Virus genome (UHGV): UHGV-0127505
DNA: 40,301 nucleotides
Source: a virus
Strand: one strand, 5' to 3'
The notes beneath the pieces were generated by a model. It worked only from the letters and a program-made list of their open reading frames with translations, was not told the origin of the DNA and made no database searches. The position numbers were made by a program, and so were the translations under genes. Below are positions 9,577 to 24,480 of this stretch, one piece after another; the stretch's first letter is position 1, and every line of letters begins with the position of its first letter.

Positions 9577-9596
9577 TTATGTTTATAATTTGACCA

Positions 9597-9647
9597 GAGA
9601 TATAGTTTATTTAAATAGCTTAATAAGCTAGAGATATAAACTATATC
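9597..9647. promoter_or_regulatory. Nested palindrome in the cI-SIR2 intergenic region (candidate operator/promoter element)
   Basis: GAGATATAGTTTAT (9597-9610) and ATAAACTATATC (9636-9647) are inverted repeats flanking the near-palindrome TAGCTTAATAAGCTA. Confidence 0.4.
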
Positions 9648-9741
9648 GCTAAATAGTATTTTATTACGTACTACATTAAGCGTCTATTTGAAAAGGCATT
9701 GAGCCTAAGTTATATAATGTAACAACAGGAATCATATTGCA

Positions 9742-10431
9742 CTATCCATGCTTCCTGTATGTTTGCGGCATGCTCCCAATAACCTTACCGAAGATGAACA
9801 CCCGGTTCATCTCGTCTTTCTCGATCGGGTCCCACGGTGAGTAGCTCTTGTTATCAGAAATAACCAGCAGCTTATCCTTCATCATTTGCAGGCGCTTTAC
9901 ATGGGCGGTGTCGTCATACAGAAACGCATAGATACCATCACCGTCGAAAGATTTAACCGTGATATCAACGAACAGCAGATCACCTGGTTCGATCGTTCCT
10001 GACATGCTGTCACCACGCACGTTAATGATGCGGATATTTTCTGCCTTCCTACCATCGAACATGTGACGAGCATCGTCAAACGAGTACTCAACCGAGCGTA
10101 GAACTTCTACAAACTCACGGTTGATGACTCCCGGCCCGGCACTCACTTCTATATCAAGAACGTCAATCTTAAAGTATTTGGAATGGCTGACAGTTGATTG
10201 TATTGGTTGCACTGTACTGTCTGACATATTTCCAACGCCAGAAGATAACCATTCTGCGCGCACACCCAAAGCGTTCGCGATCTCCACGATTTTAGTTGTT
10301 TGGTTAGCTTTCCCTGTTTCGATTTTCTGAATAGCAGCTTGGCTAACCCCGACCAAATCCCCAAGCGCCTTTTGTGTAAGGCCTCGCGCTAATCTGGCTT
10401 CTTTAAGTCTTTCTGAGAGTGTTGTTTTCAT
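9742..10431 (-). CDS. cI: CI-type prophage repressor (HTH_XRE N-terminal domain plus S24/LexA-like autoprotease domain)
   Basis: 229 aa from ATG at 10431 (MKTTLSERLKEARLARGLTQKALGDLVGVSQAAIQKIETG...); C-terminal domain with S24 peptidase character; divergent from cro. Confidence 0.85.
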   Translation of the reverse strand: MKTTLSERLKEARLARGLTQKALGDLVGVSQAAIQKIETGKANQTTKIVEIANALGVRAEWLSSGVGNMSDSTVQPIQSTVSHSKYFKIDVLDIEVSAGPGVINREFVEVLRSVEYSFDDARHMFDGRKAENIRIINVRGDSMSGTIEPGDLLFVDITVKSFDGDGIYAFLYDDTAHVKRLQMMKDKLLVISDNKSYSPWDPIEKDEMNRVFIFGKVIGSMPQTYRKHG

Positions 10432-10535
10432 AGACCAAATGTACAACCAAGGTTTTATTACATCAAACGAAAATGGTTGTTGACTAAAAACAACCATAGT
10501 TTTAATCTTGATTCAGATTAACCACGGAGGTTGTT
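10432..10535. promoter_or_regulatory. OR operator / divergent pRM-pR region
   Basis: 25-bp palindrome ATGGTTGTT-gactaaa-AACAACCAT; TTGACT, 17-bp spacer, TAATCT promoter facing cro; GGAGG ribosome-binding site before cro. Confidence 0.65.
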
Positions 10536-10766
10536 ATGAACCCAGCAATCAAAACAGCGATCAATATCGTTGGTTCACAAAAGAAACTGGGCGATGCCTG
10601 CGAAGTTTCACAGCAGGCCGTCTATAAGTGGCTTCACAACAAAGCAAAGGTATCCCCTGAACATGTCGGCAGCATTGTTACGGCTACTGGTGGAGTTGTG
10701 AAGGCATACCAGATTCGCCCGGACCTTCCGAAGTTGTTTCCACACACCGAAAAGAACGCAGCTTAA
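10536..10766 (+). CDS. cro: Cro-like HTH repressor
   Basis: 76 aa with HTH (LGDACEVSQQAVYKW); divergent from cI. Confidence 0.8.
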   Translation: MNPAIKTAINIVGSQKKLGDACEVSQQAVYKWLHNKAKVSPEHVGSIVTATGGVVKAYQIRPDLPKLFPHTEKNAA

Positions 10767-10778
10767 ATTTCCATTTCA

Positions 10779-10824
10779 CGCTCTTTAACAATAAGCAATC
10801 AACTTAACAGACTGATTAACAGTC
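10779..10824 (+). promoter_or_regulatory. nutR-like site: boxA (CGCTCTTTAACAA) plus candidate boxB hairpin
   Basis: CGCTCTTTAACAA at 10779-10791 matches the boxA consensus; GACTG-attaa-CAGTC hairpin at 10810-10824. Confidence 0.5.
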
Positions 10825-10847
10825 AATTCAAACTAAAGGAATTAATT

Positions 10848-11387
10848 ATGCAACCAATTACATACCAACAGACTAGCGGATTTAGCCCGACTGCGGTGAT
10901 AAATCGTTCTCAAACAAAACAGGCGCCAGGCCACGAAAAAATCCGTGATGCCGTTCGCGCCTGGTCGGCTGCAGATAATCAGGATGTTGTTGCCGCACTC
11001 ATTGTGAATGAGTATCGGGAGCAGGGCGGCGGCACCATCGATTTCCCTGATGATGTCAGCCGTGCACGCCAGAAGCTGTTCCGCTTCCTCGATAACAAAT
11101 TCGATTCTGAAAAATACCGAAATAACGTGCGTGAACTGACCCCGGCAATTCTGGCGGTACTACCGCTGGAATATCGCGGCCACCTGGTTGAGCAGGATAG
11201 CTTCATGGCTCGGCTGGCTGAAATGGAAAAGGAACTCAGTGAGGCAAAACAGGCTGTCATTCTCAACGCACCACGCCACCAGAAACTGAAGGAAATTAGT
11301 GAAGGTATTGTGTCGATGTTTCGTGTGGACCCAGATCTGGCTGGTCCATTGATGGCGATGGTTACTACCATGCTGGGGGCGATATGA
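10848..11387 (+). CDS. Regulatory protein in the cII position (YdaT-like family, tentative)
   Basis: 179 aa, AAAGGA ribosome-binding site; position between cro and O; family assignment from recall only. Confidence 0.45.
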   Translation: MQPITYQQTSGFSPTAVINRSQTKQAPGHEKIRDAVRAWSAADNQDVVAALIVNEYREQGGGTIDFPDDVSRARQKLFRFLDNKFDSEKYRNNVRELTPAILAVLPLEYRGHLVEQDSFMARLAEMEKELSEAKQAVILNAPRHQKLKEISEGIVSMFRVDPDLAGPLMAMVTTMLGAI

Positions 11388-11473: not shown

Positions 11474-12403
11474 ATGGCAAACACTGCTGAGATATTCAAT
11501 TTTCCAGTGCCGGATGCGGCACAAAAGGAGCCGCGCGTGGCAGATCTCGATGATGGTTATACGCGCATTGCAAATGAGTTGCTGGAAGCTGTGATGCTGG
11601 CCGGATTAACACAGCACCAGCTTCTGGTCTTCCTAGCTGTCATGCGCAAAACATATGGCTTTAATAAAAAACTGGATTGGGTGAGCAACGAGCAACTGTC
11701 CGAATTGACCGGGATATTGCCGCACAAGTGTTCTGCTGCAAAAAGTGTTCTGGTAAAGCGTGGGATTTTGATTCAGAGCGGGCGGAATATCGGTATTAAT
11801 AATGTGGTCAGTGAATGGTCAACATTACCCGAATCAGGTAAGAAAAATAAAGTTTACCTGAAAGAGGTAAATTTACCTGAATCAGGTAAGAAAAGTTTAC
11901 CCAAATCAGGTAAAGGCGTTTACCCGAATCAGGTAAACACAAAAGACAAACTAACAAAAGACAATATAAAACCTTTTTCGTCCGAGAATTCTGGCGAATC
12001 CTCTGACCAACCAGAAAACGATCTTCCTGTGGTGAAACCGGATGCTGCAATTCAGAGCGGCAGCAAGTGGGGGACAGCAGAAGACCTGACCGCCGCAGAG
12101 TGGATGTTTGACATGGTGAAGACCATCGCGCCATCAGCCAGGAAACCGAATTTTGCAGGGTGGGCTAACGATATCCGCCTGATGCGTGAACGTGACGGAC
12201 GTAACCACCGCGACATGTGCGTGCTGTTCCGCTGGGCATGCCAGGACAACTTCTGGTCCGGTAACGTGCTAAGTCCGGCCAAACTCCGCGACAAGTGGAC
12301 CCAACTCGAAATCAACCGTAACAAGCAACAGGCAGGCGTGACAGCTAGCAAACCAAAACTCGACCTGACAAACACAGACTGGATTTACGGGGTGGATCTA
12401 TGA
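11474..12403 (+). CDS. O: Replication initiator O (lambda O-like)
   Basis: N-terminal region RVADLDDGYTRIANELLEA...LAVMRKTYGFNK matches lambda O; GGGAGG ribosome-binding site; internal iterons; alternative upstream ATG at 11384. Confidence 0.85.
   Translation: MANTAEIFNFPVPDAAQKEPRVADLDDGYTRIANELLEAVMLAGLTQHQLLVFLAVMRKTYGFNKKLDWVSNEQLSELTGILPHKCSAAKSVLVKRGILIQSGRNIGINNVVSEWSTLPESGKKNKVYLKEVNLPESGKKSLPKSGKGVYPNQVNTKDKLTKDNIKPFSSENSGESSDQPENDLPVVKPDAAIQSGSKWGTAEDLTAAEWMFDMVKTIAPSARKPNFAGWANDIRLMRERDGRNHRDMCVLFRWACQDNFWSGNVLSPAKLRDKWTQLEINRNKQQAGVTASKPKLDLTNTDWIYGVDL
11843..11945. repeat. ori: Replication origin iterons (four direct repeats of about 18 bp, TACC(C/T)(G/A)AATCAGGTAA) within O, followed by an AT-rich stretch
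   Basis: Four iterons read directly in the sequence (each shows as ESGK/KSGK/NQVN in the translated O frame); same architecture as ori-lambda. Confidence 0.85.
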
Positions 12404-24179: not shown

Positions 24180-24480
24180 ATATCTGCGTCATAATTGATT
24201 ATTTGACGTGGTTTGATTGCGTAGATGCACGTTGTGACATGCAGATGATAATTATTATCATTTTACGGGTCCTTTCCGGCGATCCGGGCTGTTACGGGGC
24301 GGCGACCTCGCGGGTTTTCGCTATTTATGAAAATTTTCCGGTTTAAGGCATTTCCGTTCTTCTTCGTCGTAACTTAATGTTTTTATTTAAAATACCCCCT
24401 GAAAAGAAAGGAAACGACAGGTGCTGAAAACGAGCTTTTGGGCCTCTGTCGTTTCCTTTCTCTGTTTTTGGCCGTGGAAT
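24180..24480. other. cos: cos site (cosQ-cosN-cosB); 12-nt cohesive end GGGCGGCGACCT at 24297..24308
   Basis: Sequence GGGCGGCGACCTCGCGGGTTTTCGCTATTTATGAAAATTTTCCGGTTTAAGG reads as the lambda left end; nu1 follows. Confidence 0.95.

Follow-up and report, generated by a model that had tools for sequence, protein, structure and literature searches.

An imperfect palindrome in the leader of a SIR2-family cargo gene behind the cI-type repressor of a lambdoid E. coli prophage

How is a SIR2-family gene located directly behind a prophage repressor gene expressed, and does the AT-rich DNA between both genes take part in its control? The question is raised by the window, the whole stretch of 40,301 nucleotides analyzed here, which is a lambdoid E. 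coli prophage where the repressor gene is divergent from cro, followed by cII, O and P. A preliminary description of this DNA noted palindromic sequences in the repressor–SIR2 spacer and proposed that they could be a separate operator or part of an internal promoter, controlling the SIR2-like gene independently of pRM. The model for this proposal was the lambda promoter pLIT, which lies inside rexA and serves rexB.

The repressor–SIR2 locus and its cargo slot

The elements of the locus are listed below.

7291–7320 (no strand): OL-type dyads, GTTGTT-N8-AACAAC overlapping AACAAC-N4-GTTGTT, adjoining pL
7454–7475 (minus strand): tIMM-like intrinsic terminator, CCCGGCCACCGTGCCGGG plus TTTTCTTTT, the conserved anchor on the left side of the hot spot
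7483–7572 (minus strand): micro-ORF of 29 amino acids with a strong Shine-Dalgarno sequence, GAGGAGA
7642–9561 (minus strand): SIR2-family gene, 639 amino acids
9562–9741 (minus strand): leader or spacer from the cI stop to the SIR2 start codon, 180 bp, 26% G+C
9742–10497 (minus strand): cI-type repressor gene with HTH_3 and Peptidase_S24 domains, called cI in the annotation of related phages
10476–10494 (no strand): OR-type operator dyad, GTTGTT-N7-AACAAC

The gene identities proposed earlier were right. The minus strand gene at 9742–10497 codes for a cI-type repressor (HTH and S24 peptidase), and the one at 7642–9561, also on the minus strand, codes for a protein with a SIR2_2 domain. The true start of cI is likely to be ATG 10431, which results in a protein of 229 amino acids. 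The length of the spacer, described before as 165 bp, had to be corrected to 180 bp because the SIR2 gene starts at ATG 9561 and not at GTG 9576. This start codon agrees with a database protein of 639 amino acids (100% identity, BLASTP) as well as with the MK(R/K)KPQ beginning of all orthologues. The unit formed by cI and the cargo is closed by the terminator at 7454–7475. Inspection of the minus strand from 9741 to 9562 did not reveal any terminator-like site, and the next credible one was the conserved terminator at 7475–7454. Since there is no terminator between cI and the SIR2 gene, read-through from pRM is the default.

The flanks of the locus share 96–98% identity with phages PhiR5_1, PhiR47_2 and PhiR34_1. 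The homology ends at 7473–7477 and resumes at 9741–9743, and the anchors of the slot are the cI stop codon and the tIMM-like terminator (7475–7454). In these three phages the same slot includes HipA/HipD, GevT/GevA or nothing, and further cargo is found in other relatives. The G+C content is 26% in the spacer, 26–41% in the cargo and about 50% in the backbone. These comparisons show that the whole AT-rich spacer, including the palindrome, is part of a replaceable SIR2 cargo (about 7476–9741) rather than of the phage backbone, a location that makes a cargo-specific cis element plausible there.

Presence or absence between conserved anchors and a deviant base composition, as found here, are characteristics of moron or hot-spot cargo, and the locus is typical of cargo inserted in the hot spot from cI to the terminator. 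It is similar to the lambdoid morons of the HK97/HK022 type in being a low-G+C insert between backbone genes that is absent or replaced in close relatives; the slot is empty in PhiR34_1 and Turner. In comparison with the promoter–gene–terminator plan of the morons, the terminator at 7454–7475 is shared backbone and not cargo-borne, and the candidate for a promoter of its own, a match in the spacer, does not rise above the chance level.

The layout is also like that of lambda cI-rexA-rexB (PMC8585504). In both cases the slot is located just downstream of the repressor gene and before a conserved terminator adjoining pL/OL, the cargo is of the abortive-infection type of defence, and a spacer of about 100–200 bp follows cI. 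The rexAB slot of lambda is a known mosaic hot spot (PMC8585504). Unlike in lambda, the cargo consists of a SIR2 protein and a micro-ORF that are unrelated to RexAB, and the spacer has no promoter-like site above chance that could be compared to pLIT. The palindrome is not known to have a lambda counterpart.

Geometry, stability and distribution of the palindrome

A repeat finder identified an imperfect palindrome of 55 bp at 9596–9650, centred on 9623 and located 35–89 nt upstream of the SIR2 start codon. Its arms (9596–9622 and 9624–9650) are 27 nt each, share 81% complementarity and are separated by 1 nt. The palindrome is composed of the following parts.

9599–9610 and 9636–9647 (no strand): outer arms, perfect, 12 bp
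9611–9615 and 9631–9635 (no strand): non-complementary segments of 5 nt (5x5 mismatch)
9616–9622 and 9624–9630 (no strand): inner arms, perfect, forming a 7+1+7 core

The strings quoted in the preliminary description were all located as stated, GAGATATAGTTTAT at 9597–9610, ATAAACTATATC at 9636–9647 and TAGCTTAATAAGCTA at 9616–9630. The idea of an inverted repeat around an inner palindrome was sound, with both forming one concentric element, but the core, which was taken for a near-palindrome, is a perfect 7+1+7 palindrome. A direct repeat, AGAGATATA, is present at 9596–9604 and 9630–9638, overlapping the palindrome arms. No other inverted repeat in the 40.3 kb window is longer. The list continues with a 26-nt pair at 24405–24461 and a cluster of repeats inside the O gene (11825–11937), which we interpret as the origin iterons. 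The palindrome half-sites occur only once in the window.

The RNA of a 67-nt segment including the palindrome folds with −19.4 kcal/mol (z −5.45), and none of 200 shuffled sequences was as stable. The value for the corresponding DNA was −11.7 kcal/mol (z −6.09). A fairer test than shuffling the 67-nt segment is to shuffle the whole spacer and consider its best 70-nt window. When the 180-bp spacer was dinucleotide-shuffled, one of 100 sequences had a 70-nt window as stable as the original (p about 0.01). These results indicated that the palindrome is a real, non-random feature. The predicted hairpin has two stems, a lower one of 12–16 bp and an upper one of 6 bp, with a 5x5 internal loop between them. 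Since both strands fold equally well (the G-U asymmetry was uninformative), computation cannot assign the strand or the level, RNA or DNA, at which the palindrome acts.

A scan of Rfam 15 did not reach any family, the best overlap being a Tetrahymena snoRNA model with 31 bits against a cut-off of 100, and a literature search with the palindrome strings retrieved nothing relevant. Compared by eye only, without formal scoring, the palindrome was unlike attC, dif/Xer sites, the LexA box and the CII box.

A stable intergenic hairpin could serve as a terminator or insulator between cI and the SIR2 gene, or against antisense transcription, and one of the orthologous loci (L016) does have a genuine terminator, a small intrinsic one right after the repressor gene, in the equivalent slot. 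Nonetheless, the stem of the palindrome is A-U rich, the interior is 25 nt long and the terminator scan did not report it, which rules out a canonical intrinsic terminator. The tails that follow the stem, UCUGGUCAAAUU on the minus strand and GCUAAAUAGUAU on the plus strand, do not have a U-run, and with 25 C and 22 G in 180 nt the RNA lacks the richness in C that Rho requires. A role in termination or insulation is thus very improbable.

Megablast and blastn searches of complete E. coli genomes (5,426), phage records (50,697) and plasmids (72,556) did not retrieve any relative of the spacer or the palindrome. Exact-pattern scans of GTDB (one genome per species) and IMG/VR did not detect relatives either, and the same kind of scan of the JGI metagenomes produced a single chance match, a long, unrelated hairpin next to an IS3-like transposase (L067). 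Copies of the exact cassette occur in gut metagenomes and draft genomes of E. coli, and each of them follows the same cI. The 13 copies recovered differ by 0–2 substitutions in 2.2–2.4 kb, with none in the spacer, and therefore offer no covariation to examine. The SIR2 cassette is a recent clonal cassette in E. coli.

More distant SIR2 orthologues, with 51–82% protein identity, were found in Klebsiella and Enterobacter as well as in assembly, metagenome and viral contigs. Many of them are located directly downstream of a prophage repressor gene, with at least five unrelated repressor types represented, and others follow a lambda-P-like gene or genes of unknown function. In six cassettes compared at the DNA level (59–82% identity of the protein), the homology with the window does not extend upstream of the ATG by more than 9 nt. 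The orthologue leaders are AT-rich, 117–319 bp long and unalignable, and the palindrome is absent from the orthologous cassettes, which were considered in six repressor contexts and three hot spots other than the present ones. An apparently significant local alignment with the leader of L036 was rejected, as it consisted of gappy, low-complexity AT-rich similarity with no palindrome.

A general rule that such leaders include a hairpin, whatever its sequence, was examined with 12 leaders of SIR2 orthologues and nine leaders of cargo behind related cI genes, both sets including the present one. Besides this leader, only those of L027, L055 and the cargo of phage Perceval stood out, and the rule was rejected. 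A strong hairpin was present in one of nine other SIR2 leaders and one of eight other cargo leaders, with sequence and position unrelated to those of the palindrome. The hairpin in L027 is an unrelated imperfect palindrome and the one in L055 looks like a terminator. Because the orthologue leaders do not have the palindrome and strong hairpins are not general, the palindrome is lineage-specific and dispensable for the SIR2 system.

This distribution raises the question of whether the palindrome has a function at all. It could be a passenger, that is, a quasi-palindrome that originated by template switching or by duplication and inversion in AT-rich donor DNA, or the relic of a donor terminator, and the recent clonal spread of the cassette in E. 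coli would have carried it along. Its absence from every orthologous cassette is consistent with this explanation, and so are the occurrence of the SIR2 gene in many contexts with unrelated leaders and the 26% G+C of the region. The direct repeat that overlaps the arms is expected from a copy-and-invert event, and the E. coli copies, with so few substitutions, have not had time for decay. On the other hand, the palindrome is the longest inverted repeat in the 40-kb genome, where other long ones are found at functional-looking sites, and drift is an improbable source of two independent dyads that are both perfect and concentric, as reflected in the p value of about 0.01 for the spacer. A functionless passenger is a fair possibility, almost as probable as the role favoured below.

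Candidate roles of the palindrome

The preliminary description had considered the palindrome different from the OL/OR motif, and this was confirmed. Dyads of the form GTTGTT-N7/8-AACAAC occur in the window only at 7291–7320 and 10476–10494, and the palindrome arms, GATATAGTTTAT and TAGCTTA, do not match them. An immunity operator is ruled out by this difference in motif. To consider the other half of the proposal, an internal promoter, candidate sigma-70 sites were scored, and two of them, with predicted starts at the edges of the palindrome, were as follows.

9658–9686 (minus strand): best sense promoter-like match, TAGACG-17-TAAAAT, with a predicted start at about 9650, at the palindrome edge
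9560–9589 (plus strand): antisense promoter-like site, perfect TATAAT at 9584–9589 and weak −35, with a predicted start at about 9596, at the other palindrome edge

The sense site matches 9 of the 12 hexamer positions. Its score of 10.1 bits, obtained with our own rough PWM based on consensus frequencies from compilations, was equalled or beaten by 37–49% of the dinucleotide-shuffled spacers. The region from 7400 to 10900 includes nine promoter-like sites, while 11.5 were expected from shuffles. Since the sense candidates are not above chance, cI read-through is the simplest source of SIR2 expression. The leaders of the SIR2 orthologues had no sense promoter above chance either, except that of L017, which was better than 99% of shuffles.

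The sense site, for example, could be an internal sigma-70 promoter of the cargo, with the palindrome, at about +1 to +55, being an operator bound by a host or phage protein that gates this promoter, independently of pRM. Several observations are in favour of this. The best sense site stops 7 nt short of the palindrome edge, the perfect TATAAT of the antisense site is placed symmetrically at the opposite edge, and the core is a perfect 15-bp dyad, the size of an operator. In addition, the leader is cargo-specific, the promoter-like site of L017 is well above background, and an Enterobacter orthologue has an intrinsic terminator directly after the repressor gene, so a separate SIR2 promoter would be needed there. 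However, apart from the chance level of the sense match and the density of sites, the half-sites are single-copy in the phage and unlike OL/OR, and the palindrome is not conserved with the SIR2 gene. A constitutive promoter would also break the logic of lysogeny-only expression described for such cargo (PMC11087260).

The cassette itself does not seem to provide a regulator. Neither Pfam, the AlphaFold model nor Foldseek indicated a DNA-binding domain in the SIR2 protein, and autoregulation by this protein was rejected for that reason. The cassette, whose only other product is a peptide of 29 amino acids, was not found to code for a DNA-binding protein. Taken with the promoter scores, these findings make an operator at an internal promoter unlikely, and control independent of pRM has no computational evidence from the palindrome. 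The practical value of the check is negative, namely that the palindrome is not an immunity operator and is not conserved with the SIR2 gene.

The palindrome could also be a protein site that acts at the DNA level, for instance a nucleation site for H-NS or IHF that silences the AT-rich cargo, or an aba-like self-immunity element that neutralizes the SIR2 system during replication of the prophage itself. The leader is 26% G+C, and the arm includes CGATATA, which resembles the H-NS high-affinity motif, TCGATATATT, and may be a lead. A precedent for self-immunity is BstA of the Salmonella prophage BTP1, where the defence gene is directly downstream of cI, presumably shares the repressor promoter, and has a short cis DNA element, aba, at its 5′ boundary (PMC8585504). 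The aba element, with a length of 63 bp, includes the start codon and requires CCCGCC direct repeats at its ends (PMC8585504). The palindrome, in contrast, is a 55-bp inverted repeat of unrelated sequence that ends 35 nt upstream of the ATG, has no terminal CCCGCC repeats and does not travel with the defence gene. An obligatory self-immunity element should be conserved, which is not the case for the palindrome among the SIR2 orthologues, and a DNA-binding domain is not predicted for the SIR2 protein. We consider a DNA-level site quite improbable. A more specific version, in which the palindrome is the cis-control or self-immunity element of an undescribed cassette of SIR2-helical-repeat protein plus 29-amino-acid peptide, is a long shot. 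It would act by aba-like DNA titration or silencing, or as a start-site hairpin of convergent promoters that ties SIR2 to lysogeny.

The reading that we favour tentatively, with a probability of roughly 0.35, is that cI and SIR2 are transcribed together and the palindrome forms an intercistronic stem-loop in their RNA, where it uncouples the fates of both parts of the message. The defence cassette of SIR2 and micro-ORF, acquired horizontally, is located in the variable slot that extends from the repressor gene to the tIMM-like terminator. The leader would most likely be transcribed from the repressor promoters, as part of a message that includes cI, SIR2 and the micro-ORF and has its end at 7454–7475. 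The palindrome RNA would fold into a stem-loop of about 23 pair-lengths, with its base upstream of the SIR2 start codon by about 35 nt, and this structure could serve as an RNase III-type processing site or as a barrier to exonucleases.

Several observations are in agreement with this stem-loop. Non-complementary segments of 5 nt separate the two concentric dyads, a geometry that fits a folded strand with an internal loop better than a typical operator of 14–20 bp, and a protein operator is less likely than an RNA stem-loop role. The hairpin is clear of the ribosome-binding region, which favours a role in processing or stability over a translational switch. A similar arrangement of stem, internal loop and stem, in a similar position, is known from the RNase III sites of the T7 early mRNA (R1.1 type) and from intercistronic REP hairpins. 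Like them, the palindrome has about two helical turns and an internal loop and is located in the non-coding gap of what is presumably a polycistronic message. It does not share sequence similarity with them and has no Rfam match. What the palindrome has in common with processing or stabilizing hairpins is their structure only, and it does not have the features of an immunity operator, a terminator or an aba element. Co-transcription with the repressor has precedents in this slot, lambda rexAB and BTP1 bstA (PMC8585504) and 80alpha tha (PMC11087260).

Other observations are against the stem-loop. The orthologous SIR2 cassettes give no comparative support to it, strong hairpins are rare in the other leaders, the recovered copies are identical in the spacer, both strands fold equally well, and the dyad symmetry runs through the centre, beyond what a hairpin needs, which is compatible with the binding of a dimeric protein. 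Leader or intercistronic hairpins are common in such cargo units, and the palindrome adds a new one to this class, probably an ordinary stem-loop of the repressor–SIR2 message. If the stem-loop sets the ratio of repressor to SIR2 protein, the locus would be another case of cargo fitted behind cI without disturbing the repressor dosage, a useful but incremental addition.

The SIR2 protein and its micro-ORF

The SIR2 protein is predicted to consist of an N-terminal Rossmann SIR2 domain, helical repeats at residues 375–575 and a disordered acidic tail. The AlphaFold model has moderate confidence (pLDDT 67, pTM 0.42), and Foldseek matched it to the SIR2 subunit of SPARSA and to DSR2. PADLOC related the protein to Ago-associated SIR2 proteins and to the candidate system PDC-S65, but there is no Argonaute gene. 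The SIR2 domain resembles most closely that of SPARSA SIR2-APAZ of the short-pAgo systems, which differ in having an adjacent pAgo gene. The modelled combination of a SIR2 domain with a long helical-repeat C-terminus is like that of DSR2, although the protein has 639 amino acids as compared to about 1000. Unlike both DSR2 and the SPARSA SIR2, its conserved partner is a peptide of 26–32 amino acids. The cassette, a pair of DSR2-like SIR2 gene and micro-ORF that recurs downstream of repressor genes in unrelated prophages, is a better lead than the palindrome.

All full-length SIR2 orthologues that were examined (16 loci, 13 distinct sequences, several genomic contexts) have a micro-ORF of 26–32 amino acids behind them, which suggests that the SIR2 gene and the micro-ORF are a two-gene system. 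The micro-ORF is located 26–107 nt past the SIR2 stop codon, is preceded by a strong Shine-Dalgarno sequence and follows the pattern MK.K…(K/R)(L/I)(S/N/D).E(E/D)K…L…L.

Cargo exchange and the genomic context of the SIR2 gene

Comparison of loci carrying orthologues of the SIR2 gene (7642-9561, minus strand) indicates, at the sequence level, that this gene shifts from one hot spot to another. The gene directly upstream of an orthologue is repeatedly a prophage repressor, with at least five unrelated types represented. The other upstream neighbours were a lambda-P-like gene, genes of unknown function (L030 and L036) and a small partner ORF. DNA homology among the SIR2 loci begins at the SIR2 ATG. 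The loci compared were the following:

L010, L016, L017, L019, L020, L027: repressor-to-SIR2 junctions
L034, L030, L036: SIR2 orthologue loci beyond the repressor-junction set

The exact boundaries of the hot spot occupied in the window are:

7473-7477: terminator side
9741-9743: cI stop codon side

The conserved anchors are the cI stop codon and a CCCGG…CCGGG-T-run terminator, and the cargo between them is exchanged. Relatives carry HipA/HipD, GevT/GevA, a lipoprotein or one of several sets of hypothetical genes at this slot, which is empty in the related phages PhiR34_1 and Turner. The Klebsiella and Enterobacter loci have a similar terminator 3′ of the cassette.

The SIR2 protein and a downstream micro-ORF

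The nearest sequence relatives of the SIR2 protein are an Argonaute-associated SIR2 (PADLOC Aga_SIR2-PNTD, 1e-67) and the candidate system PDC-S65. A match to a pAgo-fusion profile spans residues 23-511, and no Argonaute gene was found near the SIR2 gene of the window. The AlphaFold model (pLDDT 67) combines the SIR2 domain with helical repeats and an acidic, disordered tail of 58 residues; the overall form predicted in this way resembles that of DSR2.

A micro-ORF of 26-32 aa with a strong Shine-Dalgarno sequence is located 3′ of SIR2, 26-107 nt from its stop codon, in all full-length orthologues examined. This set of 16 loci comprises 13 distinct sequences and spans several genomic contexts. 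Examples of the micro-ORF, to which further loci can be added, are:

7483-7572, minus strand: micro-ORF of the window, product MKDKNTVSNVRKLNTEEKNKLIKLIQSKK
L010, 5990-6079: orthologue locus
L016, 6023-6118: orthologue locus
L017, 6018-6116: orthologue locus

The micro-ORF is frameshifted in the Klebsiella locus L011, and searches with it against Pfam and PHROG matched no family. SIR2 and the micropeptide look like a two-gene cassette.

The cI-SIR2 spacer and the cI start codon

Three further features were identified in the spacer that contains the palindrome (9596-9650):

9688-9718, plus strand: antisense promoter-like site TTGAAA-19-TATAAT, perfect TATAAT, directed into the cI 3′ end
9560-9589, plus strand: antisense promoter-like site ATGAAT-18-TATAAT, perfect TATAAT
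9676-9735, minus strand: 19-codon ORF, MIPVVTLYNLGSMPFQIDA

The score of the first site is matched by 5% of dinucleotide-shuffled spacers. The predicted start of the second, at about 9596, is the first base of the palindrome, and the -10 regions of both sites share a 16-nt direct repeat that is 75% identical. The ORF lies between cI and the palindrome, starting 6 nt past the stop codon of the former and ending 25 nt short of the latter; its length is ordinary given the base composition (p ~0.2 by our estimate).

The true start of the 251-aa cI frame is probably the ATG at 10431, which yields 229 aa. This start is annotated for cI in the related phage PhiR47_2 and several E. coli assemblies, and the longer frame (region in question 10431-10497) would run over the OR dyad (10476-10494).

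Other hairpins

Hairpins unrelated to the palindrome of the window are present in other leaders of the same slot (L016, L027 and L082), and the second-longest inverted repeat of the window lies elsewhere:

L016, 3885-3904: clean intrinsic terminator directly 3′ of the repressor in this Enterobacter locus
24405-24461: inverted repeat, 26-nt arms, 85% complementary, 5-nt loop

The L027 leader (spacer) contains an imperfect palindrome with 22-nt arms, and the cargo leader of L082 (phage Perceval) a perfect 12-bp stem, ATAGCTACCGAT…ATCGGTAGCTAT. The 24405-24461 repeat, which has a T-run within an arm, may be a late-region terminator.
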